A DNA stretch of 64,000 nt, taken from assembly GCA_965207755.1 (NCBI GenBank), contig OZ242297.1, positions 83,384-147,383 on the forward strand, written 5' to 3'. Under the pieces are notes generated by a model, which made no database searches, was not told where the DNA came from, and saw only the letters and a list, made by a program, of their open reading frames with translations. The stretch comes from Acidimicrobiales bacterium. GTDB lineage: Bacteria > Actinomycetota > Acidimicrobiia > Acidimicrobiales > Aldehydirespiratoraceae. Below, piece after piece: positions 6,906 to 52,352 of this stretch. Made by a program: the position numbers and the translations under genes. Each line of letters starts with the position of its first letter. Position 1 is the stretch's first letter.

Positions 6906-7627
6906 CTAGGCAACTCGATTCCGCCGCGGCGAGCCGCCGCGTTTCGCCGGGTACCAGAAATGGCGGCCACCTGCCGCGTGGGGCTCGCGGGCATGACGCA
7001 ATGGTAGCCGGAGCGACCGCCGACCGGCCCAAGCTAGGCGGGTGGTGCGTTGCGGCAGGTCAGCCACGCCGGGCACGACGGTGGCGTTGAACAGCAGCGC
7101 CACGCTGGCCACCCCGCCGCACGCCGCCGGTCGCTGCGGACGCGCCGCCCAGGCCGCGGCGTGGAGCCCGACGGCCACCGCCACCATGGCGGGCCAGGAC
7201 CCGAGGAAGGTGGGCCGGAGGTAGAATCCCGACAGGAACCAGTGCATGTGGGCCGGCGCCGCGGTGAGCACCAGAACCACAGCGACGGCGGCCCGCTGGA
7301 CCCGGGGCGTGTATCCGACCGCCCGCGACAGCCCCAGCGCCCCCCACGGCACGAGCACGAGCAGGCCGAGGCGCCCGCGGCCGTCTGGCCGTGCACCGGG
7401 TCGGTGAAGCGCATCCAGGCGTGGCCCAGCGGCGGGTAGTTCACGCCGATGGCCTGGTCACCGTGGAACCAGTCCGACCAGCCCCGCCAGTCCCACCACG
7501 GAAGGGTCCGCAGCCACTGCGCCGCCGCGGTGTGGCCGACCATGTCGCCGTCGGGAACGCCGCCGTTGCGGGCCGCCGCACACCACGCGGCCCCGACCGT
7601 CGCAGCCACCGCGTTCCCCGCCGACAC
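6906..7627 (-). pseudogene. polytopic membrane protein, frameshifted
   Basis: The N-terminal part (WLRTLPWWDWRGWSDWFHGDQAIGVNYPPLGHAWMRF) lies in frame 7034..7627. The hydrophobic continuation (AAVAVVLVLTAAPAHMHWFLSGFYLRPTFLGSWPAMVAVAVGL) lies in frame 6906..7358. Confidence 0.4.
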
Positions 7628-7717
7628 CCAAACCGCAGCAAGACCCGCTACGAGGTCCGCGACAGACTTCTCGATGTCTTACCGCGTTCCCCGCCGACAC
7701 CCAAACCGCAGCAAGAC
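7608..7717. repeat. DR37-N36-DR37 structure (exact 37-bp direct duplication around a 36-bp insert, period 73)
   Basis: accgcgttccccgccgacacccaaaccgcagcaagac occurs at 7608-7644 and again at 7681-7717. The flanks differ. The duplicated segment includes the GTG start region (MSAGNAV) of the membrane-protein pseudogene. Confidence 0.9.
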
Positions 7718-8456
7718 GCCGCCGCTCAGCACGGGCCTCGCTGGCACCCGGCCCGGCGTCGTCCGCACCCGACGAGCAGGAGTAGGCGGCCCCGGCCGAT
7801 GCCCGTCGCCCAGGCCTTGGCCCGGAACCGGCCCTGCCGCCACATCAGGTGCTCGTCGAGCCCCAGCGCCGACACATCTGAGATCCTCTCGGCGCCGGCT
7901 GCGAGCAGCGCGCAGCCCCAGCGGCGCACCGGCGCGTTCACCGGATGCCGGCTGCAGCCCAACTCCCGCGCGATGTCGTCGTGGGAGCGGCCCCGCCCGG
8001 ACCGGCGCGTCGCCCAGCGCCCCGCCCGCGCCGTCAGCCCCTCGCGCTCGGGAGCGACCCGCGGATCCTGCTCGGTCACGGTCCACGCCGCGCCGTCCGG
8101 GTCCCCGCAGCGCCACCCGCGCCTGCTGCACCAGCCTCCAAGGCCGCCCGAACGCCGGCAGGTCCACCAGCTCCACCCCCCGATCGCCGTCAGAGCACAG
8201 CCGCCCGCCGCAGGCCCCACAGCCCGGCCGCGGCGCCCGACGGCGGACACGCACCCGCAGCGGCTCCCCGGCCCCGTCGTCGACGCCGAGCACCTCCACG
8301 TCGCCCAGCCCCAACATCAGCTCACACGCGCGCAGGGGTTGCCTCCCACAGGGATCCTCCAGATGCTCGGCTGCCTGGCGGCGCCGAATATGGGGGATCC
8401 CTCGCGTTCAGCCGCGGATGGTCAGCGCCCTACTCCGACCTCAAACGCGAAGCGCC
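7680..8456 (-). mobile_element. ISL3-family element (subtype 2), 5' part only: left end plus frameshifted transposase N-terminus
   Basis: The zf-ISL3-like CGACGGRLCSDGDRGVELVDLPAFGRPWRLV, then RCGDPDGAAWTVTEQDPR...GLDEHLMWRQGRFRAKAWATGI, are split over two frames. The terminal 106 bp (8351-8456) recur at 15702-15807. Confidence 0.7.
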
Positions 8457-9059
8457 GGTTTGAGCGAGGACCTTGTGGGATGCATAATGGACGAGCCTCC
8501 AAGTACTGTTCTTCGAGGAAGCCGCGAGCCCCGGAGGGCCAGTCCGAGGATCCTGTAGGGTCGCCTAGGACGGGAGCCGGGGCTCACGCATGCATGGGCC
8601 CGGTCAGCCCACGTAGCGAACTTCCGTCACAGTGAGGTTCCTCTGCAAGAAGCTGAATCCCGCCGATTGGCCGTCGGTGAGGTGCTCCCGGACCACGCCG
8701 GCGAGGGCGTCGGGGTACCACAACAAGGGCTCGGCCTTCGTGCGCCAGTCGTAGCTGAAGGTTGCGGACGTCCGCTCGCGGAAGCAGTTGAGGATCACGG
8801 AGCGGCCGCGTCCGTCCTCACGCTGGCCGCGTGACTCGATGACGAGATGTCCGACACCCTCGCTGTGACCCCGCCCTCTCCCTGGCAGCGCCGAACGGAC
8901 CTGCGAAGCGTCGCGGTCGACCGGATCTCTGCGGGCCTTCAGCCCTTGATGAGCGTCTCGCGGTGGCGTCTCATCGCTGGTGCAAAAAGCGGCACGGGCG
9001 TAGGTTTCCTTCGACGAGTTGTCCGCTCAAGAAGGAGGCCTGCACCGGGGCCTGCATGA

Positions 9060-9500
9060 GTGTCGCCCACCGAAGCTGTCCGCGCCGAGATCGACGAGTT
9101 GTCCGGCTCGGGTCGTGACATCGCAGAGATCCTCGAGGAGGTGATGCGCCTGTGGGCGCGGGCTGTGCTGCTGCAGGTCCTCGAGGAGGAGGTCACCTCC
9201 TGGCTGGGCCGGGACTGGGCCTCCCGCGCCGGCGGCGAACGGGCCGGGCAGCGCAACGGGTTCCGCGACGTGACGGTCAAGTCCACCGCGGGGCCGGTCT
9301 CCTTGAAGCGTCCGAAGCTGCGCAACACCGCCGCGGCGTCGCGTCGCAGCTTCGACGCCGGGTCAAAGTCATCGGCCGGCTCCCCGGCGAGGCCTCCTCC
9401 CCCACCCTGGTGTCAGCCGTGCTCGACCGGGCCTCACCAGGCTGGCGCGGCCTCACCTACACACCCGCCGTCGCCTGCCACCTCGCGGAGCGCCGCTGCC
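9060..9500 (+). pseudogene. IS256-family (Mutator-type) transposase remnant: N-terminal about 95 aa joined to a short C-terminal piece
   Basis: VLLQVLEEEVTSWLGRDWASRAGGERAGQRNGFRDVTVKSTAGPVSLKRPKLRN matches the IS256 N-terminus. VIGRLPGEASSPTLVSAVLDRASPGW (frame 9152..9610) matches the IS256 C-terminus. The whole catalytic core is missing. Confidence 0.65.
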
Positions 9501-9563
9501 GCCTACAGCAACCCCGCCACACCGACCACGCGCAGATCGCAACAGTCGCACGAGCGGTCCAAC

Positions 9564-12311
9564 ATGACCACCCGAGCCTGCGCCCCACACTGCTATTGCA
9601 CCACACCTGAGACGCGACCCACGGCCGGAGCAACGAACGAGAGCGCCGAAGAGTTGTGGGAGGAGTGCGCAGCGATCCTGCGACGCCTGTTCGTCCCCCC
9701 TGAGATCAGGCATGCCGAGCTGGAACGGCTCGCACAGTTGGAGGATCTCACCAGCGCTGACACGGCGGCCGTCCTGGGCCTCGTGTCCAGTTCCGGGCAC
9801 CTGCAGCATTTCTTGGCGAACATCGAGAGCCCAGCCTGGCTCGAAGCGCTGGGAGCCGCCGGCGTCTTGGATCTCTCAGACACGCATGGTCCGTGGCCGC
9901 CGCATGTCGCGGTGACCCGCCTCGCGGGAAGCCATCCCGCCAGGATCACAGCCTGGCTCCAGGACATGTACCCGTCGCGAGACGCTGGACCTGTGCCTGC
10001 CGCACAGGTCTGCCATGCCGCACTGAATGTTGGCGGGCCGGCCCTCGGCTTGGTCCTCGCCGCCGTGCGAGATCACCCAACCGACCACAGGATCATGAGG
10101 TCAGGCGTTAGGGCGGCAGAGCAGGCCGACGCGTCCGCTGCGTTGGTGGAGGACCTCGCCGACCTGATCCTGAATCCGAACAGTTGGCGCGCGGCCCGGC
10201 TCGTTGAGCCGCTGCTCAAACAGATGTCAGCCGGCGCGAACGAGGACAACTCTCAGCGCCGTGTCTCGATCCTTGTGCACAAGATCCGCTCACTCTCTGA
10301 CGACGATCAACTGCTCCGCAGGCTCAAGTGGCGGCGTTCTGGGTCCATCGCCGACACCCCTGCGAGGCATTCGCGTGATGATCGGTCCTGGGCACTGTTG
10401 TCGTGCTTGCTTCGCCTGCTGGAGAGTGCTTGGACCTGGACGCCCGCCAGCGACCTCCTTGACCACCTCGACGGCCTGCCTGACAGCCTCAGGCAACGAC
10501 TACGGGCATGGGTGCTCGCAAACGCGCCAGACGCCGACGCCGCACTCATCATCGATGAGATCGAGCAGGCGATCTCCACGCGGCTGCCGACCGGTGACGA
10601 CCCGGCTCTGCTGGACCGCGCCGCCGCGGTCGGCGACGCAGCCACATCTGCGACCAGATGGCGCGCCGCGTTGGGCACAGCGCCCGACGCGGAGCAAGCG
10701 GCTCGTGCGGCCGCCGCCGACGACATGAACCAGGATTGGCTTCGAGGACTGCGGTGGGTCCCGCTGCTGCCCGCCGGAACCGCGGACGCCTGGGCGGCTG
10801 CGAGCGACATTCTCGCCGACAGCTACGGCAGATCCAGCCGAGAAGGCCTCGCCCGCCGCCGCCCAGACACGATGGCCCAGTTCGCGGTGAGCCCCATCAG
10901 CATTGAGGAACTGCGATCGCTGGACCCGGACAGCGCCGCCGAGCGCGTTGCGGAGTGGCGGCCCGGCCCCGACGACTGGCTCGGCGGGGCGCATGAGATC
11001 GCAAGAGCCCTCGAGACCGTCGTCAAGGACAGCATCGAAGACTGTGTGTCCGCACCGATCCGCACAGTCGAGAAGCTGCGACACCCCACCTACATCAGCC
11101 GCTATCTGTCTGCCCTGACAGCGACCGTCTCAGCCCACGAACTGCCCGTCGGCGACATACTCGACGTGATTGGGCTTGTAAGAACACGCCCGTGGCCAGT
11201 GGAACCGCTCGCCGACGACCACCGCGACTACGACGCCGACTGGCGCGAGACGGAGCAGGCAGCCGTCGGGTTGATCAAGGCTCTGGCCGACTCAGACCGA
11301 GGCTTCGACGGCCGCGCCGACGAAGTCTGGGCGGTGCTGGCCTCTGAAGCCTCTGATCGTTCGGAGCCCTCCAACATAGTCTCGATCAGCACCGGGCCGG
11401 ATCATCTCGACAGCGCCATGGCCCGGCCATGCACCCGTGCCCTCGAGGCTGTGATCTCCCTCGTCGCGCACGAGTACCGCTCTTGTGGCACCGTGCGCCC
11501 AGAAGCGACCGCCCTCTTTGAGGACGCCCTGCGACTCGTCGACACCGACGGCGCCGAACACCGGGCCGTGCTGGCCTCCAGGATCGGATTCTTGTCGCAT
11601 GCCCTGCCCGAATGGACCGAGACGAACCGCGACCTATTGTTCGGAGACCAAGCCCCAGAGGGGCTAGGCCAGCTCACCGTCGAGCTCGCCCTCGAGTGGA
11701 GCCCCCCGAATCGGTGGCTCCTCGAGAACTTCCCCGAAGCCGTCCGCAACGCCGTCAGAGTCAGCGCCGAGCACGCCATGGACCACATGATGATCGCAAT
11801 GCTGTGGGGCTGCGCCGGCTACTCGGTCCCAGAGACCGTCGGGTTCCTGCGATCCTCTCCCGAGTTGGTGTCGAGGTCCGGGCAAGCACTGGCGAACGTC
11901 CTCGGCGGCGCCGACGTCGAAGCGTCCGTCGTCGATACTGTCACCGACTTCTGGAACGCGATCCTCGAGACAGAGACCGGCGACGCGGTCGAAGGATTCG
12001 GGTGGCTCGCAGAAGTCGCAGCAATCAGCGCCGAAACGTGGGAAGACCTCACGCTACGGACAATCAAGGCCGCCAACGGGCGAATCGACTGGAGCCACGG
12101 CATCGTCAAACGGCTCGCGGAATCGCCTCCCACCAGCACAGGCCTCGCACTCCTCAACGAGATGGTACGCGGCGACCTCGAAGAGTGGGACACCCTGAAC
12201 GTCGCCGAAGCGGCAGCGGACGTGCTCTCCAGGGCGGACAGCCTGAAAGACACCGACGACTACAAGCGGCTGCGCACAACACTGCTCGAACGGGCAATTA
12301 TCAGCGATTGA
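9564..12311 (+). CDS. large (about 915 aa) helical-repeat protein of unknown function; true N-terminus probably lost to the IS256 scar
   Basis: This is the C-terminal 915 codons of ORF 9060..12311, starting from the first in-frame ATG after the IS remnant. The composition is Leu/Ala/Asp/Glu-rich and coding-like throughout. No catalytic motif was recognised. Confidence 0.5.
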   Translation: MTTRACAPHCYCTTPETRPTAGATNESAEELWEECAAILRRLFVPPEIRHAELERLAQLEDLTSADTAAVLGLVSSSGHLQHFLANIESPAWLEALGAAGVLDLSDTHGPWPPHVAVTRLAGSHPARITAWLQDMYPSRDAGPVPAAQVCHAALNVGGPALGLVLAAVRDHPTDHRIMRSGVRAAEQADASAALVEDLADLILNPNSWRAARLVEPLLKQMSAGANEDNSQRRVSILVHKIRSLSDDDQLLRRLKWRRSGSIADTPARHSRDDRSWALLSCLLRLLESAWTWTPASDLLDHLDGLPDSLRQRLRAWVLANAPDADAALIIDEIEQAISTRLPTGDDPALLDRAAAVGDAATSATRWRAALGTAPDAEQAARAAAADDMNQDWLRGLRWVPLLPAGTADAWAAASDILADSYGRSSREGLARRRPDTMAQFAVSPISIEELRSLDPDSAAERVAEWRPGPDDWLGGAHEIARALETVVKDSIEDCVSAPIRTVEKLRHPTYISRYLSALTATVSAHELPVGDILDVIGLVRTRPWPVEPLADDHRDYDADWRETEQAAVGLIKALADSDRGFDGRADEVWAVLASEASDRSEPSNIVSISTGPDHLDSAMARPCTRALEAVISLVAHEYRSCGTVRPEATALFEDALRLVDTDGAEHRAVLASRIGFLSHALPEWTETNRDLLFGDQAPEGLGQLTVELALEWSPPNRWLLENFPEAVRNAVRVSAEHAMDHMMIAMLWGCAGYSVPETVGFLRSSPELVSRSGQALANVLGGADVEASVVDTVTDFWNAILETETGDAVEGFGWLAEVAAISAETWEDLTLRTIKAANGRIDWSHGIVKRLAESPPTSTGLALLNEMVRGDLEEWDTLNVAEAAADVLSRADSLKDTDDYKRLRTTLLERAIISD

Positions 12312-12356: not shown

Positions 12357-12895
12357 GAGCCTTCGCGAATTCGTGGGGAGCGGGGTGGTTGAGGGTCCCC
12401 GTTGAGGGGTCGGGGCCCTGCTGGGATCGGTGATTGACACACCACTGATCCAGGAGGGCCTCGATGGCTTCTGATGTTGTGCGGGTGCGGCTGCGTGAGA
12501 CACGCGTGCTGAGAGTGCAGGTCGGCACGCCGAGCGAGCTGCGCGTGGAGATCGAGTCGACGGTGAGGCGCCCGCGGTGCCCGGCGTGCGGGTTCGGTTG
12601 CGCACGGGTGCATGACACCCGCCGACGCGACATTCGCGACGTTGGGGTGTCGGGGCGGCGCACCACGCTGGTTCGGCGCCGGCGACGGTTCCGCTGCGGG
12701 GGCTGCGAGCACCGCTTGGTCGAGGGCCACCCCGGGTTCGACGGCCGCCTGAGGCGGCGTCTGGCCCGGCGGCTGGTGGCCGACGCCGAGGTCAATGAGC
12801 CCGGTTACGTGAAGATGAGGACTCGCTCCAGCCGGTTCACCGTGCCGGTACAGATCGACATCTTCGACGCTCCCACAGCCGGGAGCGACGCCTGA
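12357..12895 (+). mobile_element. ISL3-family (subtype 1) left end plus N-terminal transposase fragment
   Basis: The end motif gagccttcgcgaattcgtggggagcggggtggttgagggtcccc (12357-12400) is followed by ORF 12464.. with the zf-ISL3 pattern RCPACGFGCARVHDTRRRDIRDVGVSGRRTTLVRRRRRFRCGGCEHRLVEGHPGF. The rest of the transposase is absent. Confidence 0.75.
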
Positions 12896-12896
12896 A

Positions 12897-14243
12897 GTGC
12901 CTTACGACGGTGAATATGCCACGGGCCATACGCTCGCTCGACTGGTTGCCAACCCGGCAGTGCGTGACTTCGACGGTGAGATCAAGAAATCCGCATCCAC
13001 CGGTGCTGGAGCCCTGCCCGCCACCATCGCACCACGCCGCGGGTCGACAAGAGTTAAGCGCCTCATCGCCATAGACGGCTCGACTGTGACGTCGAAGGTC
13101 GAGAACGGCCACCCAGGCGCGGAGGCTTCGCTGCTGAACATCGCCGCGGTCGTGATCGCGTTGGCGAGGTTGCGGGAACTAACCCAAATGGGCAAGAACG
13201 CCTCCGAGCCGATCCCGAGCCCCGCCGCAGTCAGAGAACTCGAGAAGTGCGACACCCTCAGCGCCGTGCTGCCCGGACGCAACGTCATAGGCAAGTCCAC
13301 CGGTGCGGACACCCCAAGAAGGTTCTTCCGTCAAGTCGTGCACCGCGAAATCAGCGGAGCGACCCTCTCGGGCGACCACGAGACCCTGCTGGAGACGCTG
13401 CGAGCCATCACCAACGACCGGTCGGCCCCTATCCAGTGCCCGGGCGAGTCCTGCGACCAGCATGTCACGCCGCAGTCTGAGCCGACGAACTGCGAAGCGT
13501 GCAGAGAGACCGTGTACCCCTCGGACTCACTGCGCTGCCACGAGAGATTCGAGGACTACGGCAGTAGCGAACAGGCCTTCACCATGGTGAGGATCGTCGT
13601 CGAGCACCTCTCGATGGTCAACCTGATCCGCTGGTTCGAGAGGCACGACCGGTTCGACGTGCTCGACGGGATCGGGTTCATCATGGACGGTCCGCTGGCC
13701 ATCTTCGGCATGGCAGCGTGGCTCAAGAAGCACATACAAGACGAGCTAGCCCGGCTCCACCGGCTCTCCCTTCACAAGGGCGGAGCGGGAGTGCTCCTGC
13801 TGGGAGTCGAGAAGCACGGGATGTTCATGGACCACCTCGAAGCGCTCGACTGGTCCGCGGCCCGCGGCGAGCGCGGCCGGCTGCAGCCGGGCACAGTGAT
13901 GGCCCCCGACGTTAGCTACATCCACCAGCACATCGCCTTGCGACCGCCGGACGCCAAACCCTACGGGCAGGCGACCTACTACGGCCGGCACCTGATGTAC
14001 AAGTCACAGAGCGGACAGCACGCCGCCTTGACGCTTCCGATTGTCAATGCCCAGGGAGCGGACCCGGCATGTGTGGAGGAGGGTGCTTACCCGCGCGCCG
14101 GCGACGCCCTGGACCTCATCGACGAGTTGGGCACCCACCTCTACAAGGACGGGTTCGCCCCGTTGGCGCGGGCCCATCTGCACGCCGCGGTGCCGCTGCA
14201 CCGCGGCACCGAGATACTGGCCTCCATCTTCTCGGACCGATGA
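12897..14243 (+). CDS. NurA-like nuclease with inserted zinc ribbon (candidate restriction component)
   Basis: GTG start preceded by GGGAGC. It carries RLIAIDGSTVTS and GFIMDGPLAIFGM (the NurA D-G-S / D-G-x-L acidic motifs) and a Cys cluster CPGESCDQH...CEACRETVYPSDSLRCH. The stop overlaps the methyltransferase start (ATGA). Confidence 0.55.
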   Translation: MPYDGEYATGHTLARLVANPAVRDFDGEIKKSASTGAGALPATIAPRRGSTRVKRLIAIDGSTVTSKVENGHPGAEASLLNIAAVVIALARLRELTQMGKNASEPIPSPAAVRELEKCDTLSAVLPGRNVIGKSTGADTPRRFFRQVVHREISGATLSGDHETLLETLRAITNDRSAPIQCPGESCDQHVTPQSEPTNCEACRETVYPSDSLRCHERFEDYGSSEQAFTMVRIVVEHLSMVNLIRWFERHDRFDVLDGIGFIMDGPLAIFGMAAWLKKHIQDELARLHRLSLHKGGAGVLLLGVEKHGMFMDHLEALDWSAARGERGRLQPGTVMAPDVSYIHQHIALRPPDAKPYGQATYYGRHLMYKSQSGQHAALTLPIVNAQGADPACVEEGAYPRAGDALDLIDELGTHLYKDGFAPLARAHLHAAVPLHRGTEILASIFSDR

Positions 14244-15436
14244 CAGCCGCCGTCACCAGACCGACGCCCGACTGCGGAGTGGGGTTCGCCACCCCCGAGG
14301 CCCGATGGGCTCGTCTGGGTCCCTACTACGCGATGTTTCCCATCAGTTTCGCCCAGGATGCCATAGACCGCTTCTCCCAGCCCGGAGACCTGGTCTTGGA
14401 CCCGTTCTGCGGCCGGGGCACCGCCCCATATGCCGCCATGGTCGCCGGCAGGGACGCCCTCGGCTGCGAGATCAACCCGGTCGCCTGGGTGTACGCCGCT
14501 ACCAAGACAGCCCCCGCGCCCGGCCCGGAGGCGGTCAAGGACCGCATCCGCGACATCGCCGAGTCCGCCTCGCCGGAGGACCGCGAGCCCAGATCGGAGT
14601 TCCAGGCCCTCGCGTTCTGCCGGACCGTGCTGGGGTTCCTGCACGCCGCGCGCCGCGGGCTGCGATGGCGGCACGACACCATCGACCGCACAGTCGCCGC
14701 GTTGATCCTCCACTACCTGCACAGCAAGATCCCCCAGGGGCTCTCGAACCAGATGCGCCACTGCCGGGCCATGTCGCCGGGCTACTGCGTGCGCTGGTGG
14801 AACGACAACGGCTACCAGACACCCCCCGAAGTCGACCCCGTCAGCTTCCTCAACGACCGAGTCGACTGGCGCTACCGCAGAGGAATCCCCGAGAGATCGC
14901 ACAGCAGCGGCGTGACCGTGACCCTCGGCGACTCTGCCGCCGACCTGGAGCCAGTGGCCAAGCCGGCCCGGCTGGTAGTGACATCGCCCCCGTACAGCGC
15001 GGTGACCGACTACAGAGCCGACAGTTGGCTGCGGCTGTGGGCGATCGGGGAAGGCCCCGCCTTGCCGAGATGGGACACCAAGCAGAAGTACGTCGACTTG
15101 GCCGCGTACGGCACGATGCTGCGGCGAGTGTTCTCGGCGACGGCACGCAGAGCACACCCCGACGCGGCGTGGCTGGTGCGCTGCGACGCCCGCGAGCGAA
15201 CATTCGACGTCGTCCTCCCCCTGCTGGGCGAGATCGCCGGCGGCCGAGACGTCGACGTGAGCCCTGCCCCGTTCCGGCGGCCCACCCAGACGTCGCTGTA
15301 CGGCGACCGGGCCGCGAAACCCGGCGAGATGGACCTGCTCGTGCGCCCCGGAGCCACGAGAGCACGCCGACCTGGCCAAAGCCGAGCCCCGAACGGCTCC
15401 GCCGCCGCCCGCTGCACACCACAGGCCGAATCGTGA
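14240..15436 (+). CDS. N6A/N4C DNA methyltransferase, motif I before motif IV (alpha-like order)
   Basis: The ATG at 14240 lies inside ORF 14069..15436. LVLDPFCGRGTAPYAA (AdoMet motif I) is followed about 200 aa later by LVVTSPPYSAVTDY (catalytic SPPY). Confidence 0.8.
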   Translation: MTAAVTRPTPDCGVGFATPEARWARLGPYYAMFPISFAQDAIDRFSQPGDLVLDPFCGRGTAPYAAMVAGRDALGCEINPVAWVYAATKTAPAPGPEAVKDRIRDIAESASPEDREPRSEFQALAFCRTVLGFLHAARRGLRWRHDTIDRTVAALILHYLHSKIPQGLSNQMRHCRAMSPGYCVRWWNDNGYQTPPEVDPVSFLNDRVDWRYRRGIPERSHSSGVTVTLGDSAADLEPVAKPARLVVTSPPYSAVTDYRADSWLRLWAIGEGPALPRWDTKQKYVDLAAYGTMLRRVFSATARRAHPDAAWLVRCDARERTFDVVLPLLGEIAGGRDVDVSPAPFRRPTQTSLYGDRAAKPGEMDLLVRPGATRARRPGQSRAPNGSAAARCTPQAES

Positions 15437-16965: not shown

Positions 16966-17927
16966 TGTCCTGTGCTCTCATGGAGCCGATACCAGTCGGC
17001 GGGGCTGCCAAATACTAGGCGTCGTACGCCTTCCGACGACAGTACTTGCTCGGCATGCTGCATTAGCCGTTCCGCATGTGAATCACTCCATCCATTCTCT
17101 TCCTGGGAGGAGACGAGCGATTTGATTTGCCTGTATGAGAGTGGACTGCGTTCCTGGGTGAAATAATGCACAACATCGATATCCATGTTGTTACCAAGCC
17201 GAATGATCTGACTGATCGATAGCGTCGCCACGAGCAGTGGATCGCTCAAGTAGTGATCAATGTAGTCTGGTGCCAGCCTACACTGCTCAGCGGCTACCAA
17301 TTGATCGCGGTGGTTGAGACTCCTCCACTTGTACCATAGATCAGATTGAACGTGGCGATACAGTATCGACAGATTGCTACGGATTCTAGGACCGTCCTCG
17401 ATCTTGCTGCGATTGTTCTGAACAAAGAGCCGCACAACTGAGGCGAGTTGGTCTGGCAGCTCATAGAACTCCACATTGATCAGTGGATTACCTGAGACTT
17501 GTCGACTAACGTTCTCTCCCTTCGGAGACAAGTGAAGTATCGGAATGCCTTGTCTGCATGCGAGTTCAAGTTCTTGGCCAGTTCCAGAGCTTCCGCCCTG
17601 AAGCGACAAGATGATCAATGCGTCGGCTTCAGCCAACACTAGGCGAGTGTTCTGTCGGTATATGTCCCATTGGCTGGCATCGCTTGACCATGGAGCACTC
17701 AGCACGGCTGGTGCGTGAGTTCGGAACTGAGCTGGCCCGCCGTCAAATCGGGGATCCTGAATCGTGGCTACGATCTTGTCAACTTGGAAGGTGACGCTTC
17801 GACGCTGCTCGGGTGATGGGTCAGCCCGCGTAAGAGGCGACGCGATGTAGATCAACGGAAGATCGTGGTCATCGCTCCGGCGAGGAGCCTCGCCAGCCGC
17901 AAATGGAAGCTCGAGTTCACCCTTCAT
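16962..17927 (-). CDS. nucleoside 2-deoxyribosyltransferase-like domain fused to a C-terminal XRE-type HTH
   Basis: The N-terminal half has LIYIASPL ... AEADALIILSLQGGSSGTGQELELACRQGIPILHL (NDT-like Rossmannoid pattern with a conserved Glu). The C-terminal half has an HTH-like LVATLSISQIIRLGNNMDIDVVHYF. A good SD (AGGAGAAG) sits 5 nt before the ATG, inside the Doc 3' end. Confidence 0.5.
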   Translation of the reverse strand: MKGELELPFAAGEAPRRSDDHDLPLIYIASPLTRADPSPEQRRSVTFQVDKIVATIQDPRFDGGPAQFRTHAPAVLSAPWSSDASQWDIYRQNTRLVLAEADALIILSLQGGSSGTGQELELACRQGIPILHLSPKGENVSRQVSGNPLINVEFYELPDQLASVVRLFVQNNRSKIEDGPRIRSNLSILYRHVQSDLWYKWRSLNHRDQLVAAEQCRLAPDYIDHYLSDPLLVATLSISQIIRLGNNMDIDVVHYFTQERSPLSYRQIKSLVSSQEENGWSDSHAERLMQHAEQVLSSEGVRRLVFGSPADWYRLHESTGQ

Positions 17928-18345
17928 CGTCTTCTCCTGGTTCTACGAGACGCCGCCGGATCCAACGTCCGAGTTCCTCCTGGCTGACGGTGCCAGCCGC
18001 CACTCCCTCGATCATCGCCACAGTCTCGTCACGTTCCACCCCATCGTTTGGAGGACGTGCCCACTCATAACCATTGCGGTACACAAACTCAAGCAGGCAC
18101 ACGTAGCCGACGCGCTTGTTGCCGTCCAGCAGGGGGTGACCCTTGATGAGCTGAAACGTCATAGCCGCGGCCTTGTCGGCGAAGCACGGGTAGTACTCGA
18201 CCTGCCCAATGCCAGCATTAGGAGCCGACAGGGCGTGCTCAGCCATGTGCAGTCGCGGCAGGCGCGCGAGTGCCTCGACCTCGATCCCGGTGATCTGCTC
18301 CGCGATCAACAGGAACTCGGCAAGGTCGAGGCACTCCACGCTCAT
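17917..18345 (-). CDS. doc: Doc (death-on-curing) Fic-fold toxin
   Basis: It carries the Fic/Doc motif HPLLDGNKRVG. The ATG at 18345 is the internal start of ORF 17917..18489, 1 nt after the antitoxin stop. Confidence 0.85.
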   Translation of the reverse strand: MSVECLDLAEFLLIAEQITGIEVEALARLPRLHMAEHALSAPNAGIGQVEYYPCFADKAAAMTFQLIKGHPLLDGNKRVGYVCLLEFVYRNGYEWARPPNDGVERDETVAMIEGVAAGTVSQEELGRWIRRRLVEPGEDDEG

Positions 18346-18346
18346 G

Positions 18347-18562
18347 TCACTGGGCGAGCCTCTCAAGCACGACGCGCTCCTCGTCGAGGATGCGCTGGAG
18401 CCGTGCCTGAAAGGCGGGGTCGCGCCGTCGCTTCTCGATGTGCTCAGCGATGGCGGCGCGGATCGCCTCCGAAGTGGACACGCCGTCAACCCGCGCGACC
18501 GCGTCGAGTTCGGCGGCCTGCTGGGCGTCTTGGCGGATGGTCGTAGTGCGGGTGTCTGCCAT
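18347..18562 (-). CDS. ribbon-helix-helix antitoxin-like protein (Phd-position partner of Doc)
   Basis: The ATG at 18562 is preceded by AAGGAGGAGG. MADTRTTTIRQDAQQAAELDAVARVDGVSTSEAIRAAIAEHIEKRR is RHH-like. Confidence 0.7.
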   Translation of the reverse strand: MADTRTTTIRQDAQQAAELDAVARVDGVSTSEAIRAAIAEHIEKRRRDPAFQARLQRILDEERVVLERLAQ

Positions 18563-20120: not shown

Positions 20121-20753
20121 TCAGGTCTGCGCTCGCCGGGTGTGTGCGATGGTGCGGAACGTGATCGAGACGCGTCGTTGGCGCTTGGTCCGTTGGCCGT
20201 TCCAGGTGTCGGTTTGCCGTTTCGCGATGCCGTGGCGCCACTTGTGGCGGGCGTCGCCGTGGAGAAGCACGAGGCTGCGCGGCTCCAAGCGCTGCACATG
20301 CTTGTCCCCGGTCGACTCTCGACAGAAGTCCATGTTGACAGCCGAGCCCAGGCTGACGGTCGCGACGACGGGGCCGAAGCAGTCCCTGTCGATGTGGGGG
20401 GCGATCCCCTGCCCAGGCGAGTACTCGTTGATGATCGCCTGCTCGAACGGCCGGTCGGGGTCGAGTTGCTGCTTCGCTTCCTCGGATGCAACTTCACGCA
20501 CCGTGTGCGACAGTCGTGCCAGCCACTCTGGCAGCGGCCCGATGCGGGCCGTTTCGTCGAGGCTGCGACTGGTGTAGTCGTACTTGTACCCGAAGTGCAT
20601 CACACGCCGGGAGAGGTCCGTGAGCCACTCAGAGCCGTCGATCCGCGCGAGCAGCCCGCCCTCGTCGCGGGCAGACAAGGCGTCGGGGTGGTAATCGAGC
20701 CCCAAGGGAGCAGCCGCGGGCTGCGCGTCCGTCAGCGACAGTTGCAGGCTCAT
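20121..20753 (-). CDS. AlkB-like Fe(II)/2-oxoglutarate dioxygenase
   Basis: IINEYSPGQGIAPHIDRD (HxD), LLHGDARHKWRHGI (distal His) and RVSITFR (2OG Arg) are present. ATG 20753 overlaps the methyltransferase stop (ATGA). Confidence 0.8.
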   Translation of the reverse strand: MSLQLSLTDAQPAAAPLGLDYHPDALSARDEGGLLARIDGSEWLTDLSRRVMHFGYKYDYTSRSLDETARIGPLPEWLARLSHTVREVASEEAKQQLDPDRPFEQAIINEYSPGQGIAPHIDRDCFGPVVATVSLGSAVNMDFCRESTGDKHVQRLEPRSLVLLHGDARHKWRHGIAKRQTDTWNGQRTKRQRRVSITFRTIAHTRRAQT

Positions 20754-31110: not shown

Positions 31111-31146
31111 TGCATCTCGCCGGTGGCGGTCCGCAGGTACTCTTCG

Positions 31147-36755: not shown

Positions 36756-36808
36756 TTTTCTCGGGTTGGTTTTGGGTGCCTACCGCGCAAAACCGACCCG
36801 AGATTTCC
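36756..36808. repeat. REP-like hairpin element, family A (TCTCGGGTTGG ... CCGACCCGAGA)
   Basis: ttttctcgggttggttttgggtgcctaccgcgcaaaaccgacccgagatttcc forms a 16-bp stem (one mismatch) with a 13-nt loop. Confidence 0.85.
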
Positions 36809-41467: not shown

Positions 41468-42292
41468 CTAGAGCGTCGGCAGGAGTTCGTCGAAGAGGGC
41501 GCTGAAGCGCTCGGCCGCAGCGGCTGCAGCCTCGATGACCTCGTTGTGAGACAGGGGCAGGTCGGAGATGCCGGCCGCCAGGTTGGTACACAGCGAGATG
41601 CCCAGCACCTGGGCGCCCATGTGGCGGGCGGCGGTGGCCTCGGGCACTGTCGACATGCCCACCATCGACCCGCCCAGCGCCTGGGCCAGGCGGATCTCGG
41701 CCGGGGTCTCGAACATCGGGCCGTGGAACCAGAAGTAAACGCCCTCCCGCAGCGTCTGCCCCAGCCGGGCCGCGGCCGCGTGGGCCTTGGCCCGGAGCTC
41801 AGGTGTGTACACGTCGGTCATGTCGGTGAAGCGGGGTCCGATGCGCTCGTCGTTCGGGCCGGCCAGCGCGCTGATGCCGGCCAGGTTCACGTGGTCGGTG
41901 ATGACGGCCAGGTCGCCGGCGGCCATGCCCTCGCCGCAGGCCCCGGCAGCGTTGGTGAGCACCACCGCCCGGCATCCGGCCGTGACCGCGGTCCGCACCG
42001 CGAACGTGATGGCCCCTGGGTCGTGGCCCTCGTAGGCGTGGGCCCGCCCCGACAGCAGCAGCACCCGGTTGCCGCCCATCTGCGCCGAGTAGGCCGTGCC
42101 GGCGTGGCCGACGGCGGTGGGGATGGGGAACCCGGGCAGGTCCCGGTACGGCACCGCTGCCTTGTCGCTGATCCGGTCGGGGTAGCCGCCCAGCCCCGAC
42201 CCCAGCACCACGCACACGTCGTGCCGCTCGCACCCGGTCCGCTCGGCCAGCACCCGGGCCGTCCCCCGCAGCCGCTCATACAGATCAGTCAC
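41468..42292 (-). CDS. punA: purine nucleoside phosphorylase (trimeric PNP family)
   Basis: VVLGSGLGG...GFPIPTAVGHAGT...LLSGRAHAYEGHD...VLTNAAGA...GDLAVITDHVNL...GPRFTDM...EGVYFWFHGPMFETPAEIR...MVGMSTVPE are present. The start is ambiguous (GTG 42292 or ATG 42352) because of a 73-bp duplication at the 5' end. Confidence 0.85.
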   Translation of the reverse strand: MTDLYERLRGTARVLAERTGCERHDVCVVLGSGLGGYPDRISDKAAVPYRDLPGFPIPTAVGHAGTAYSAQMGGNRVLLLSGRAHAYEGHDPGAITFAVRTAVTAGCRAVVLTNAAGACGEGMAAGDLAVITDHVNLAGISALAGPNDERIGPRFTDMTDVYTPELRAKAHAAAARLGQTLREGVYFWFHGPMFETPAEIRLAQALGGSMVGMSTVPEATAARHMGAQVLGISLCTNLAAGISDLPLSHNEVIEAAAAAAERFSALFDELLPTL

Positions 42293-42370
42293 GACACTGG
42301 GCTGTGTGCGCTTGCTGACCGCACAAGCGCACAGTCCCCTCCAGCCGCTCATACAGATCAGTCACGACAC
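42261..42370. repeat. DR37-N36-DR37 structure at the PNP start; the 36-bp insert is a perfect 10-bp-stem hairpin
   Basis: gtcccc(cg/tc)cagccgctcatacagatcagtcacgacac occurs at 42261-42297 and 42334-42370 (35/37 identical). The insert at 42298-42333 contains tgtgcgcttg-ctgaccgca-caagcgcaca. Confidence 0.9.
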
Positions 42371-42538: not shown

Positions 42539-43869
42539 GGTGCGGCTCCGGTCAGTCTCCGTGCCCGGGTGTCGGCTTCGGCTACCGCCTCGGCCACGTC
42601 GAGGGTCAGCAGCCGGCCGTGGTCCACCACCTTGCTCCCGGCTACCCACACCGCGCTGATGGCGCCCGGCGAGCCCGACCACACGATCCGCGACAGCGGG
42701 TCGTCCTCGGCCTCGATCACCGGGTGCAGCGCCGGCTCCGAGGCCGACAGCGCCATCATGTCGGCCCAGCATCCCGGCGCCAGCCGCCCCAACTCGCCTC
42801 TCCGGCCGATCACCTCGGCCGCTCCCGCGGTGGTCATGCGCAGCGCCTCGGCCGGTCCGAACGTCTGGGCGTCGCCCGAGCGGATGCGGGCCGTGCGGAT
42901 GGCGGTGCGCATCTCCTCGAACAGGTCGAGGCGGTGGTGCGACGCCGGCCCGTCGGTCCCTATCGCCAGCCGCAGCCCGGCCGCCTGCATCTCGGTCACC
43001 GGCGCCACCCCGGAGGCGTGCTTGGCGTTGGAGCACGGGCAGTGCACTACCGCGGTGTCGTTGCGGGCCAGCACGTCGATGTCGTCGGCGGTCAGCCACA
43101 CGCCGTGGGCCGCGATCACGTCGCCGTCGAGCAGCCCGAGCGACTCCAGGTACTCGGGGGCGGCCAGCCCGCCGGTGCGCTCCCGGACTGCGGCGTCCTC
43201 CCACTGCTGCTCGGCCAGGTGGATATGCACCGGCATCCCGGCGCCGGCGGCCCGCTCGGCGATGGCGGTCAGGCACTCCGCCGACACCGAGTAGGCGGCA
43301 TGGGCCGCCATCCCCACCCCGATCAGGTCGCTGCCGGCCCAGCGGTCCCGCAGGGCGACCATCTCGTCGAGCTGCTCGGGCCAAGGCCCGGTCAGGGTGA
43401 AGTCGGGGTCCTCGATCACACCGGGGGTCACCAGGCAGCGCATCCCGGCGTCGGTGGCGCCCTCGGCCACGGCCTGGCCGCTGAAGTACATCTCGACCGA
43501 TGTGGTGATCCCGTTGGCCAGCAGCTCGGCCGCGCCGAGCCGCATCCCGGCCCGCACGTCGCCGGCGGTGAGCTTCGACTCCCGGGGCCACATCACCTCG
43601 TGCAGCCAGCGGTCGACCGGCAGCCCCTCGCCGGCGCCCCGCAGCAGCACCATCGGCGTGTGGCAGTGGGCGTTGACGAGGCTCGGCATGAGGATGCCGG
43701 TCCGGTGTACGGCGGCGCCGGGGGCCGGGTCGGGCGCGTCGGCGGCGGGGCCGCACCAGGCGATCCGCCCGTCGTCGTCCACGTCCACCGCCCCGCCGGT
43801 GATCGGTGCGGGGACGGCGCCGGCCGGTCCGTCCATGGTGACGAGCACGTCGCACAGGTACCGGTCCAT
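42535..43869 (-). CDS. amidohydrolase, MTA/SAH (or related nucleoside/base) deaminase family
   Basis: LVNAHCHTPM (HxH metal site), PVHIHLAEQ, AAHGVWL and AIGTDGPASHH fit the MtaD/SsnA-type family. It lies in an operon with the PNP gene. Confidence 0.75.
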   Translation of the reverse strand: MDRYLCDVLVTMDGPAGAVPAPITGGAVDVDDDGRIAWCGPAADAPDPAPGAAVHRTGILMPSLVNAHCHTPMVLLRGAGEGLPVDRWLHEVMWPRESKLTAGDVRAGMRLGAAELLANGITTSVEMYFSGQAVAEGATDAGMRCLVTPGVIEDPDFTLTGPWPEQLDEMVALRDRWAGSDLIGVGMAAHAAYSVSAECLTAIAERAAGAGMPVHIHLAEQQWEDAAVRERTGGLAAPEYLESLGLLDGDVIAAHGVWLTADDIDVLARNDTAVVHCPCSNAKHASGVAPVTEMQAAGLRLAIGTDGPASHHRLDLFEEMRTAIRTARIRSGDAQTFGPAEALRMTTAGAAEVIGRRGELGRLAPGCWADMMALSASEPALHPVIEAEDDPLSRIVWSGSPGAISAVWVAGSKVVDHGRLLTLDVAEAVAEADTRARRLTGAAP

Positions 43870-43980
43870 CAGCGCCCCACCCTAGAGAGCGCCCTGCCTC
43901 TCCCGGAATCCCCGGGTGAGCGAATTGGCAGCAGGATGCCCGTATAGCGTGCATTGTGCTGCCAATTCCTTGCGTAGGCA

Positions 43981-44094
43981 GGCTCCGGGCTGTGTGTGAG
44001 CACCCAGCCCATGCCGCCTCCTGGCCCTGGCCCGGGCCCCAGCGTCGGCCAGCGGCTCCGGGCTGTGTGTGAGTACCCAGCCCATGCCGCCTCC
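43981..44094. repeat. direct duplication with 73-bp period (41-bp match, one mismatch; equivalently 37 + 36)
   Basis: ggctccgggctgtgtgtgag(c/t)acccagcccatgccgcctcc occurs at 43981 and 44054. Confidence 0.85.
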
Positions 44095-45636: not shown

Positions 45637-45640
45637 CCGG

Positions 45641-45711
45641 AGCGGATGACGAGAATCGAACTCGCATTCTCAGCTTGGGAAGCTGATGTTCTACCATTGA
45701 ACTACACCCGC
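45641..45711 (-). tRNA. tRNA-Gly (anticodon CCC)
   Basis: The reverse complement GCGGGTG-TA-GTTC-AATGGTA-GAAC-A-TCAGC-TTCCCAA-GCTGA-GAAT-GCGAG-TTCGATT-CTCGT-CATCCGC-T folds as a canonical cloverleaf. CCA is not encoded. Confidence 0.9.
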
Positions 45712-45758
45712 GAAGGGCATGAGCGTAGCCAGGTCATCGCCCGCTGCACAGCCGAGGG

Positions 45759-45869
45759 GTTCTCGGGTTGGTAATGGGTCGTGAGTGCCCAAAACCGGCC
45801 CGAGATTTTCCCGCCCGGATTCTCGGGTTGGTAATGGGTGGTGAGTGCCCAAAACCAACCCGAGATTTT
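45759..45869. repeat. two tandem REP-like family A hairpin elements (60-bp period)
   Basis: (g/a)ttctcgggttggtaatgggt(c/g)gtgagtgcccaaaacc(gg/aa)cccgagatttt occurs twice. The second copy has a perfect 12-bp stem TCTCGGGTTGGT/ACCAACCCGAGA. Confidence 0.9.
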
Positions 45870-49865: not shown

Positions 49866-49904
49866 AGTAGCAGACCACTATGACACAAACGAGTTGACAT
49901 GCAT

Positions 49905-51185
49905 TCAAATAGCAGTGCTCCACAAGATGACGGCCGAGCCGGTGGGGCCTGCGCTGATGGTCAGGAGCAGCCGCTCGCTGGCCGGGACAGCGAGCCCGTC
50001 AGTGATGAGGCGCAGCTCCTCGGCTGCCCCGGCGTTGCCGGTGGCCACCGCACCTCCGTCACGGTTGATGCGCTCCGCGTCGATGTCCAGGGACCGGGCC
50101 AACAGCATCGTCGTGGCCGCGTCGTGCTCGACGACGGAGATGACGTCGACGGCAGAGAGCTCGACCCCGGCGTCACCCAGCGCCCGACCGACCGCCACGG
50201 CCACGTTGCCGACCGGGTCGAACGGGTCGCCCGCGGCCCGGCCCATCCCGGCCACGGTGGCCATCCCGCCCGGCGCCCGGCCGACCGCCGCGGCCACGTT
50301 GCCGACGGGATCGGGCGGGTCGCAGGCCTGCCCTGTCCCGGCAACTCCGCCTGGCGCCGGGGCCTCGCCAGCCTGCAGCAGCACCGCAGTCACGCAGTCG
50401 GCTGGAGGAGCGAACGTGGCCGCGGTCAGCAGTCCGTCGTCGTCGAAGGCGGGGGGCAGGTCGGCCGCGTCCCCCCAGTCGCGCACCACGTCGTCGGCGA
50501 CCGGGTCGCCGCGGTACACGCCCCGCCCTGCGGCGGCGCCCGGCCTGGCCGCCACCGCCACGATGGCTGCCCGCGACCTTGACCCCGCCGCCGGTCCTGC
50601 CGCCGGTGCCGACTCTGATCCCGGTCCTGCCGCCGACAGCGACCACGCCTCCGCCCGCCGGCGCCGGGACTCCTCGGCCGCGGCGTCGAGCTCGGCCCGG
50701 CCGATGCCGGCGGCCTGAGCAGCCCTCTCCGAGAGCCGGGGCGCCGGCAGCAGCCCCCCGACCTCGTCGAACCGCTCAGCCACCCCGCCCCACGGCGCCC
50801 CGTAGGCGCGGTTGAGCGCAGCCGCGCCCGGCGGCACCACCGAGCACAGGCCGAGGCCGACCACCAGCACGGTCCGGGCCTGGCCGGCCCGGATGGCGGC
50901 CACCGCCGCCTGCGCTGCTGCCGCACCGCTGGTCTCGCCCCGATCGACCACCGAACCGCCGATTGACACCGGCCACCCCGCAGCCAGCACGATCGCCCGG
51001 GCCACGTCGGCCCCGGCGGCCCCCACCGGATCGCAGCACCCCACCACCACCTCGTCGAGCACGCCCGCGTCGAGCCCGGCCCGCTCCAGCACCTCCCGGC
51101 CCACCACGCCGGCCAGCAGCACCGGGTTCCAGCCGGCCAGCTCTCCGTCCACCGGCCGCACCGCCGTCCGGGCTCCAGCCACCAT
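49905..51185 (-). CDS. thiolase-fold protein lacking the catalytic Cys/His residues, with an internal duplication
   Basis: MVAGARTAVRPVDGELAG... has a thiolase N-terminal layout. At the active-site position it reads VVDRGETSGAAAAQ (no Cys). The C-terminal part reads INRDGGAVATGNAG (Asn where His is expected). A repeated DP.DPVGNVA.AVGRA segment is present. Confidence 0.5.
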   Translation of the reverse strand: MVAGARTAVRPVDGELAGWNPVLLAGVVGREVLERAGLDAGVLDEVVVGCCDPVGAAGADVARAIVLAAGWPVSIGGSVVDRGETSGAAAAQAAVAAIRAGQARTVLVVGLGLCSVVPPGAAALNRAYGAPWGGVAERFDEVGGLLPAPRLSERAAQAAGIGRAELDAAAEESRRRRAEAWSLSAAGPGSESAPAAGPAAGSRSRAAIVAVAARPGAAAGRGVYRGDPVADDVVRDWGDAADLPPAFDDDGLLTAATFAPPADCVTAVLLQAGEAPAPGGVAGTGQACDPPDPVGNVAAAVGRAPGGMATVAGMGRAAGDPFDPVGNVAVAVGRALGDAGVELSAVDVISVVEHDAATTMLLARSLDIDAERINRDGGAVATGNAGAAEELRLITDGLAVPASERLLLTISAGPTGSAVILWSTAI

Positions 51186-51334
51186 CGTCACAGCCACCGC
51201 CGGGGTCGCACCCACGGCGTCAATGTCTACTCGCCGCCGGTCCCGCCGGCCGCGCACGAGCGACGCACCCCCCACCGGCGGGTGTTCTCGCCGTCCGGTG
51301 CTCGCGAGGGCGCCAACCCGGCGCCGGCTGCCGT

Positions 51335-51824
51335 GGCCGAAGTTGTGCCTGCATCCCGACGACGCTGCCTCGCGAGGGCCTTGTCGAGGGGGACTGGGCC
51401 CGGATTGAGACGCGGACCGGCAGTGTGGTCGCCGCCATCTCGGTGAGGGACACAATGGACACCGTGGACACAATGAGGGCAGGCCACCTGCGGGTGCGGG
51501 ACCTGGCCCACGGTGTGCAGGCTGCGGGCGGACACCATGGGCACAATGAGGGCAGGCCACCTGCGGGCGCCCCACGGCTGGTGGTATCCCGAGCCGCGGG
51601 GCGAAGCCGACCTTGCCGGCGCGTTCATCAGCAGCGACGCCGTGCTGTGCGACGATGTCGACGAATGGCTCGACCACGAGCATGGCGTTCCCCACTTGCA
51701 GGGCGTTCCCCACTTGCAGGGCGTTCCCCACTTGCAGGGCGTTCCCCACTTCAAGGGCTTTCCCGGGCGTCTGGTCAGGCTGGACGAGCCCCCCGCCCTG
51801 TCCGAGCTGACGCTGAACGGCTGA
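51335..51824 (+). pseudogene. C-terminal (molybdopterin dinucleotide-binding) domain fragment of a Mo-oxidoreductase; multiply frameshifted with internal repeats
   Basis: LHPDDAASRG / LVEGDWARIETRTGSVVAAISVRD / WWYPEPRGEADLAGAFISSDAVLCDD are spread over three frames. An 18-bp repeat x4 (GVPHLQ) lies at 51688-51760. Confidence 0.5.
51458..51567. repeat. DR37-N36-DR37 structure, period 73
   Basis: gacacc(g/a)tgg(a/g)cacaatgagggcaggccacctgcggg occurs at 51458-51494 and 51531-51567 (35/37 identical). Confidence 0.85.
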
Positions 51825-52033
51825 CTTCACGTCTGGCAGCGAGCGCGCTAGCCGGCTGCCGCTCTCTCGTTCAGCCGCAGTTCGAGCGAGTCGAGATCCA
51901 CCGGCGTGCCGTCCTCGCGCACCAGTCCAACCGTGACCCGCTGGCCGGTGTCCCGGTGGTGCCTGCTCACCCCTCTTGAAGCCGTAGTTCTCAGCTGCCT
52001 CGCCGCCGACACCGCCACCGCAATGCTTCCAAC

Positions 52034-52352
52034 TCGGGACCGCGGTGCAGGAGCGGCGCGACCCGGAGTTCTTCAGGAACTCGACGGGCCTGCCGGAGGT
52101 TCCAGGTCGGGACGGCGGTGCAGGAGCGGCGCGACCCGGAGTTCTTCAGGAACTCGACGGGCCTGCCGGAGGTTCCAGGTCGGGACGGCGGTGCAGGAGC
52201 GGCGCGACCCGGAGTTCTTCAGGAACTCGACGGGCCTGCCGGAGGTTCCAGGTCGGGACGGCGGTGCAGGAGCGGCGCGACCCGGAGTTCTTCAGGAACT
52301 CGACGGGCCTGCCGGAGGTTCAGGTCGGGACGGCGGTGCAGGAGCGGCGCGA
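52034..52352. repeat. 73-bp tandem array, about 4.4 copies
   Basis: The unit is tcgggacggcggtgcaggagcggcgcgacccggagttcttcaggaactcgacgggcctgccggaggttccagg. Unit starts are at 52034, 52107, 52180, 52253 and 52325. The unit contains the palindrome gagttcttcaggaactc. The array lies upstream of the DoxX gene. Confidence 0.95.

Follow-up and report, generated by a model that had tools for sequence, protein, structure and literature searches.

How do several unrelated places in one stretch of bacterial DNA come to be built to the same measure? The stretch in question (the window) is a 64-kb piece of DNA of 68% G+C, from a sponge-symbiotic member of the Acidimicrobiia belonging to the 'Candidatus Aldehydirespirator' clade. 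At five loci in it, a duplicated target segment (A) stands on either side of an insert (B), and at all five the second copy, A2, begins exactly 73 bp after the first, A1, so that the period, A+B, is constant. A first-pass annotation had drawn attention to these A-B-A structures, and had suggested that they arose by integration of short DNA of the kind carried out by Cas1-Cas2 in the adaptation of CRISPR systems. The structures are there as it described them, with coordinates, identities and spacing all reproduced. In this article, we show from comparison with relatives that each event is an insertion accompanied by duplication of the target, and we then ask what kind of ruler might have measured it; a Cas1-Cas2-like integrase is our best guess, and a tentative one.

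Five A-B-A loci and an array with the same period

The relatives used here are 80 loci from a scan of species-representative genomes (numbered with the prefix L). The closest are metagenome-assembled genomes of sponge-symbiotic Acidimicrobiia, labelled 'Candidatus Aldehydirespirator' or Acidimicrobiaceae. An amidohydrolase gene lying between loci 3 and 4 is identically encoded on two other public metagenome contigs, L001 and L002, which show about 98.5% identity to the window. The components of the five loci, and of an array with the same period, are as follows (searches of viral contigs and of Joint Genome Institute (JGI) metagenomes are described further on).

7608-7644: locus 1, copy A1, 37 bp, 37/37 identical to 7681-7717; within a defence/mobile-element island
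7645-7680: locus 1, insert B, 36 bp, 56% GC; no other copy in the window, and no match in viral contigs or JGI metagenomes
7681-7717: locus 1, copy A2, 73 bp after A1
26378-26413: locus 2, copy A1, 36 bp, one mismatch to 26451-26486
26414-26450: locus 2, insert B, 37 bp; unique in the window, and without a match in the viral-contig search
26451-26486: locus 2, copy A2, period 73
42261-42297, minus strand: locus 3, copy A1, the original start of the purine nucleoside phosphorylase (PNP) gene; 35/37 identical to A2 (42334)
42298-42333, minus strand: locus 3, insert B, 36 bp, with a perfect 10-bp stem
42334-42370, minus strand: locus 3, copy A2, the upstream copy, which has retained the ribosome-binding site AGGAGG and from which a 26-codon upstream open reading frame (ORF) starts
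43981-44021, minus strand: locus 4, copy A1, 41 bp, one mismatch to A2; the minus strand holds GGAGG-N4-ATG
44022-44053: locus 4, insert B, 32 bp, 81% GC; present in L001 and L002
44054-44094, minus strand: locus 4, copy A2, 41 bp
51457-51494, plus strand: locus 5, copy A1, 38 bp, two mismatches to A2; shared with L001
51495-51529: locus 5, insert B, 35 bp; unique in the window, and without a match in the viral-contig search
51530-51567, plus strand: locus 5, copy A2, containing the start of an 83-aa gene called in L001
52027-52353: 73-bp array, (AB)4A, with A of 36 and B of 37 bp; 4.5 copies with 98% matches according to Tandem Repeats Finder (TRF)

At locus 5 the identity is 35/37 if the copies are taken from 51458 and 51531, and 36/38 if they are counted from 51457; the 83-aa gene, called on the minus strand at 1702-1953 of L001, would start near position 51537 of the window. 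The array, which the first-pass annotation had placed at 52034-52352 with about 4.4 copies, sits c. 70 bp upstream of a gene for a DoxX membrane protein. Its inner units are identical, whereas its outer A copies have diverged (one has three mismatches, the other a 1-nt deletion), and its half-unit ending is the layout predicted if, as had been proposed, it grew from an A-B-A structure by unequal crossing-over. Each of the five loci has 1.5 copies, not two whole units. The usual description of a CRISPR array (at least three near-identical repeats with different spacers) does not fit any of them: there are two repeat copies per locus, and in the array the units are identical.

The constancy of the period stands out in systematic searches. 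When all periods from 10 to 2000 were scanned, isolated partial repeats were found in the window five times at a period of 73 and once each at 60, 77, 93 and 104; the chance of five out of nine such events having one common period is about 1e-6. A looser scan of periods from 40 to 130 gave seven hits at 73, against 0-3 at any other period. The spike at 73 that the earlier annotation had proposed to look for is therefore a sharp excess in the window, and is found at 71-73 bp across 33 related loci.

Several of the A segments contain a gene start. The clearest case is locus 3, at which A (on the minus strand) comprises 5 nt of upstream sequence, a GTG codon and ten further codons of the PNP gene; the translation from 42292 begins VTDLYERLRGTARVLAERTG, and the ORF matches Pfam PNP_UDP_1 (E=1.5e-49). 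The insertion has created the 26-codon upstream ORF (42285-42365, minus strand; VTDLYERLEGTVRLCGQQAHTAQCRD*), which runs through B and has a stop overlapping codons 2-3 of the real PNP gene. From the ATG in A1 of locus 4 there runs a 47-codon ORF (43866-44012, minus strand) that ends in TGATG on the start codon of the amidohydrolase gene. The first-pass annotation had assigned two events to gene starts. That at the PNP gene is locus 3; the other, at a supposed membrane-protein pseudogene, concerns the DoxX gene, and we saw no evidence that this is a pseudogene, the gene being called intact (229 aa) in another assembly.

Could such structures be produced by assembly software? Contig ends and scaffold gaps of L001 and L002 do fall on the repeats, showing that assemblers break there: gaps in the L001 scaffold coincide with locus 4, with a repeat of period 60 near 45757 and with the array, and there is another near 50600, while the L002 contig begins inside the locus 4 repeat and reads B-A-B-A. 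Because of this reading, and of the gap in L001 at the same place, the copy number of locus 4 must be considered variable, or unresolved, between strains. However, loci 3, 4 and 5 are all found in these two independent metagenome assemblies of the same species, with point differences of their own (the insert of locus 3 is in both), and similar events occur in chromosome-scale records and in contigs with short-read-style names (NODE_, k141_) alike. Since three assemblies of the species agree, and many public assemblies with differing styles of contig name contain similar events, we rule out an assembly artefact, the probability of which we consider negligible.

Empty sites and the nature of the inserts

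What did these sites look like beforehand? At the PNP start, a single A immediately follows the ribosome-binding site AGGAGG in L003, L004 and L061 (in the window, AGGAGG precedes the upstream copy), and A1 of locus 3 equals the single copy in L003 and L004 exactly. The locus 3 insert is missing from all relatives at this site, and the site is longer in the window by exactly 73 bp than in L027, where the short intergenic region is laid out in the same way. Single-A, B-less sites were also found in relatives for five events in other species (L008 11561, L028 14463, L019 2231, L030 14420 and L029 959). Over these six sites, the net gain per event is one unit of 71-73 bp (two units in the case of L019 2231, which is an (AB)2A array), and in none of the six was there an allele with B beside a single A. 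The event at L028 14463 is within a coding region, which it frameshifts. At L008 11561 the same PNP start has been hit independently; this event is offset by 6-7 nt, and its B is a different one. Since A is present once and B not at all in the pre-insertion alleles of relatives, each event both inserted DNA and duplicated its target. Recovery of unduplicated alleles, as advocated in the first-pass annotation, has thus succeeded for locus 3 (and for the five events elsewhere), but the pre-insertion alleles of loci 1 and 2 were not found; two window proteins near them have no recorded matches.

The two independent events at the PNP start might bring to mind a hot spot. By our estimate, however, about two such coincidences are to be expected, the space in which insertions are tolerated being small, and we make no claim for one.

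It follows from the empty sites that simple tandem duplication, already thought ill-suited to the 1.5-copy structure of the five loci, can be rejected for them, as B is missing from those sites. Nor is B a local copy of some other kind. The five inserts of the window share nothing with each other, as had been stated, and have no copy elsewhere in the window; they show no similarity to the flanks within 400 bp on either strand, or to the sequence immediately before or after A in register. These flank, whole-window and in-register comparisons reject local templating, which the earlier annotation had named as one of the findings that would speak against its proposal. The inserts have a 3-base periodicity of G+C (0.35, compared with 0.22 for shuffled sequences and 0.46 for 36-mers from genes of the window), and about half of them look like pieces of high-GC coding DNA. 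From this codon-like periodicity, it appears that the inserts are copied or captured real, partly coding DNA, and not untemplated filler.

The one insert that had been described as a perfect hairpin is that of locus 3 (42298-42333), with a minimum free energy of -16.6 kcal/mol (z=-2.8); beyond this hairpin, no secondary structure common to A or B was found. The only lead to the source of any insert concerns locus 4, whose insert matches at 23/24 positions the 3' end of the amidohydrolase gene in L020 (11286-11308), better than it matches the window's own copy of that gene; for a query of 81% GC this is not significant, and we do not accept it as a source.

A clade-wide unit of constant length and its possible rulers

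The same scan applied to all 80 loci found 165 repeat regions, of which 41 belong to a peak at 71-73 bp (24 A-B-A, seven two-copy and ten arrays), and the peak is the same for the A-B-A, two-copy and multi-copy classes. Among the loci with at least 72% amino acid identity to the window amidohydrolase, there are 45 regions with a period of 70-75 bp in 653 kb; in more distant Acidimicrobiia and others there are five in 1.7 Mb. The process is clade-specific. Within the clade its density is about one event per 15 kb, rising to about eight events in 21 kb in L008 (OZ220727.1), and half-unit ends of the (AB)nA type occur in relatives' arrays as well (e.g. at L008 3150, L019 2231 and L025 20830). A single event with the same geometry (37/35) is present in L081, from a distant lineage (61% amino acid identity). 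The bin names of L081 and of the assembly containing L002 both include the label RHO, which we take to refer to the sponge Rhopaloeides odorabile; if the host is shared, that would be in keeping with a transferable system.

Lengths were analysed for 22 events, drawn from one syntenic region and the window. In 16 clean events at unique sequences, A is 37.2 +/- 2.0 bp, B is 35.6 +/- 2.1 bp and the period is 72.8 +/- 0.9 bp (an apparent 27/44 event proved to be 36/35 with a 1-nt indel). The edges of A and B are sharp, only two of 32 being fuzzy, which leads us to discard fuzzy, error-prone junctions as a feature of the process. One place in L008 (2040-2380) deserves separate mention: three overlapping duplications (periods 73, 61 and 73) are stacked there, at a spot with five forward CCCCGAGAA motifs, and it is the sole place at which adjacent repeats carry different inserts.

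How might such a unit be measured out? Our best guess, to which we give rather less than even weight, is that the structures are scars of a ruler-type, Cas1-Cas2-like capture of short DNA by staggered cutting at ordinary chromosomal sites. The two strands of the target would be opened at points about 37 bp from each other; a piece of DNA from elsewhere, about 36 bp long, would be joined in, and gap filling would duplicate the 37 bp and so produce A-B-A repeating at 73 bp. From this, (AB)nA arrays could grow by slippage or unequal recombination involving the two copies of A, and selection would keep mainly those events that fall at gene boundaries (where the duplicate leaves a whole gene start or end) or in dispensable DNA. 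CRISPR adaptation is, to our knowledge, the only process that duplicates a target of about 37 bp and inserts about 36 bp of foreign DNA, and repeat lengths of 36-37 and spacer lengths of 35-38 are within the usual CRISPR range. Sponge-symbiotic members of this family have been reported to be enriched in CRISPR-Cas genes (PMC11706023), and off-target integration by Cas1-Cas2, with duplication of a repeat-length segment, is known in Escherichia coli (Nivala et al., 2018, as cited in bioRxiv 10.1101/148544). Both the staggering of the cut and the enzyme's identity are inferences on our part, and the CRISPR reading, although it fits the geometry, is unproven. As to the first-pass proposal of a ruler of the Cas1-Cas2 type, the target duplication and the inserts of fixed length, non-local and different at each site, have stood up to scrutiny; a junction motif and independent lengths of A and B, which such integration would lead one to expect, have not.

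A considerable body of observations weighs against a Cas1-Cas2-like origin. No cas gene, leader or CRISPR array was found in the window (the absence of cas genes and arrays there had been noted before) or in 1.5 Mb of related loci, and neither were arrays with differing spacers. A position matrix over 30 junction halves gave only a weak G at +1 and C at +5. Searches for protospacers, by which the first-pass annotation had hoped to trace the inserts to phage, plasmid or metagenome DNA, did not do so: there were zero matches for 24-mers of seven inserts in seven scans of viral contigs, and zero for 16 inserts among phages and plasmids, while in a comparison of 20 inserts with 3.3 Mb of fetched loci the scores did not exceed those of shuffled controls. 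(One insert also gave zero matches in the JGI metagenomes, where the locus itself was unmatched too, so the collection appears not to contain the species.) The trait is present in 22 of 33 clade loci; CRISPR-Cas is typically patchy, and a near-universal trait in a clade would be unusual for it. Then there are the lengths. In the main class (n=16) r(A,B) is -0.90 and the standard deviation of the sum is 0.9, against 2.9 expected if A and B were independent, although part of this anticorrelation stems from uncertain placement of the A/B boundary; for all 22 events the standard deviations are 4.5 for A, 5.1 for B and 1.5 for the sum (6.8 expected if independent), with r=-0.96. The remaining six events form a second class with A of about 46, B of about 26 and a sum of 71.8. 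Full tandem repeats and the dispersed palindromic elements described below share a period of 68-72 bp; among the former are repeats of 68-71 bp at gene starts (L061, L005 and L070), where B is a copy, since diverged, of the sequence that comes next. Finally, the window differs from L002 by a strain-polymorphic insertion of +73 bp at 36054-36165 that is built of local copies only, as two nested duplications of 29 and 44 bp (TRF periods 44 and 29).

Two independent rulers, as with Cas1-Cas2, do not predict the tight A+B, the class with long A and short B, or the period shared by tandem and dispersed repeats; together these therefore suggest a ruler that measures the whole unit. This would be a process intrinsic to the clade and independent of Cas, adding one constant unit of about 72-73 bp whatever its content, which may be a local copy of 27-54 bp plus DNA from elsewhere, or local sequence only. 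The ruler might be one turn of DNA around a protein, a small circle of about 73 nt that integrates through its homology to A, or template-switching repair synthesis that runs for a fixed length. Besides the constant sum, which the second class keeps, such a process would accommodate the 68-71-bp repeats at gene starts, the polymorphism of 29+44 bp, the 70-72-bp spacing of the dispersed elements, the single period peak of all three repeat classes, the failure to find a target motif, and the occurrence of the trait in nearly every clade member and not in distant relatives. We regard it as a serious rival, if somewhat less likely than the integrase. It is silent on the source and joining of the non-local inserts, and we know of no enzyme or structure that would provide a whole-unit ruler of about 73 bp; moreover, two ordinary duplications could have produced the 29+44 event, the spacing of the dispersed elements may reflect no more than a length of about 71 bp, boundary placement accounts for some of the main-class anticorrelation, and an event of the same geometry does occur in the distant L081. 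The wider proposition, that a Cas-independent ruler has repeatedly added units of about 73 bp, part target and part foreign, and has thereby built a sizeable share of the clade's intergenic DNA and minisatellites, has in our view about the same likelihood; no integrase, transposase or repair pathway with such a signature is known to us.

Two more conventional explanations have less to recommend them. The loci could be ordinary minisatellites (variable-number tandem repeats, VNTRs) formed by replication slippage and unequal crossing-over, with A-B-A as their collapsed ground state. Tandem repeats are indeed plentiful in the clade, and their periods are many (148 repeat regions in 653 kb), copy number does differ between strains, some arrays are true whole-unit duplications, and the later growth of the array at 52027-52353 fits this family. 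But slippage copies existing sequence, and B is neither present at the empty sites nor related to the flanks; the junctions lack microhomology, and slippage does not predict a sharp peak of length. As ordinary slippage cannot create B, we consider this explanation improbable. The other possibility is that the structures are selected regulatory modules or copies of small mobile elements, such as leader ORFs for translational coupling, or insertions resembling repetitive extragenic palindromic (REP) sequences or miniature inverted-repeat transposable elements, with target duplications. The gene starts in several A segments, the upstream ORFs that stop at the starts of the PNP and amidohydrolase genes, and the coexistence of a dispersed palindromic family with the A-B-A events are what might be expected of these, yet the inserts have no shared ends or consensus, so no element is being copied; nothing structural is common to A or to B, the L028 event disrupts a reading frame, and random insertion followed by purifying selection would leave the events at gene boundaries. 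We think this very improbable, and the lack of shared termini or consensus also leads us to reject a transposable element with target-site duplication.

Returning to the preferred Cas1-Cas2-like reading, literature searches for duplicate-and-insert events of this sort found nothing, and if the reading is true these loci would document for the first time, in nature and clade-wide, the integration of spacers outside arrays, at about one event per 15 kb and with visible consequences in new upstream ORFs, frameshifted genes and newborn minisatellites. A laboratory effect would become a measurable force in genome evolution, and there would be a natural data set on the choice of sites by an integrase. 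If Cas is not involved, the constant 72-73-bp unit would point to an undescribed ruler mechanism for duplicative insertion. In either case the structures account for the origin of the clade's many 70-75-bp tandem repeats, and they provide strain-typing markers for uncultured sponge symbionts.

Other repeats, the neighbourhood and known systems

The dispersed palindromic element mentioned above has the form [AT]TCTCGGG-N31/32-CCCGAGA[AT] and a length of about 47 nt, and there are 48 copies in 1.5 Mb. It is found in L017, L019, L021, L026 and others, and in the window at 36758-36804, 45760-45806, 45820-45866, 55899-56296 (six copies, forming a 70-bp array at 55895-56300) and 60330-60376. Family-wide covariation within the element was not supported: its 7-bp ends alone are invariant, and the interior varies. 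Relatives contain two more families that recur every 71-72 bp, GAAYTGGCAGC...GCTGCCAATTC and CCGAAAYTGGCGAC...CCAATTTCGG (L007, L015, L018, L020, L021, L029, L041 and L070). The window has other perfect or near-perfect tandem arrays, at 36251-36375 (30 bp x4.2), 39361-39500 (27 bp x5.2), 54748-55096 (33 bp x10), 58091-58207 (60 bp x2) and 60960-61758 (65 bp x12.3); what the 65-bp array repeats is the 3' end of the 60395-60925 gene, and an A-B-A structure with a period of 77 comes before it at 60863.

Positions 1-32000 of the window, which contain loci 1 and 2, form the defence/mobile-element island, with the following genes.

1193-2212, 9060-12311 and 12464-12895: rve, Mutator and ISL3 transposase fragments
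3693-4973: PDC-M02B candidate defence protein
14069-15436 and 30772-32511: two N6/N4 DNA methylases
17917-18489: Fic
20121-20813: AlkB-like oxygenase
27060-27737: NYN-domain protein
27884-29158: DarG

Elsewhere, a thiolase-like frame (49905-51830, minus strand) has weak, split Pfam matches, and only a 204-aa Thiolase_C fragment of it is called in L001; this gene is probably decaying. An Rfam scan found two tRNAs and nothing else: tRNA-Gly(CCC) at 45639-45711 (73 nt), which adjoins two copies of the palindromic element, and tRNA-Tyr(GTA) at 63383-63465.

How do the A-B-A loci compare with systems already known? The closest likeness is to the 'neo-CRISPR' loci made by off-target Cas1-Cas2 integration, which, as far as that secondary account goes, also have a spacer-sized fragment from elsewhere with a repeat-length target duplication on both sides, outside arrays. 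In E. coli these are described there as arising on over-expression, with a 28-bp duplication and a site motif, whereas the events considered here occur naturally, are clade-wide and number about one per 15 kb, with no motif found; in addition, growth here amplifies one unit and brings in no new spacers, A+B is tighter than its parts, and no cas genes are in view. Bona fide CRISPR arrays have in common with our loci the repeat-spacer-repeat layout and a period of about 73 bp, but here the repeat differs at each locus and is present in only two copies or in identical units, no leader or cas genes are nearby, and the repeats share no hairpin.

Actinobacterial minisatellites of the mycobacterial interspersed repetitive unit (MIRU-VNTR) type lie between genes, as tandem units of 50-80 bp, in an actinobacterium of high GC content, with strain-variable copy number and small ORFs overlapping neighbouring starts, and in all of this they resemble the structures described here. 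MIRUs belong, however, to one dispersed sequence family, whereas each of our loci has an A and a B of its own, and its founding event imports DNA foreign to the site. Transposons and casposons likewise produce an insertion flanked by direct target duplications, but known duplications of that kind are of 2-15 bp and the elements share ends and usually have a transposase; our inserts have nothing in common, and the duplication measures about 37 bp. The counterpart of REP/REPIN elements in this clade is the dispersed [AT]TCTCGGG-N31/32-CCCGAGA[AT] element, which frequently forms tandems with a spacing of 60-61 or 70-71 bp. Its copies can be recognised as one family, whereas the five A-B-A loci are unique sequences; nothing but the period links them to the element.

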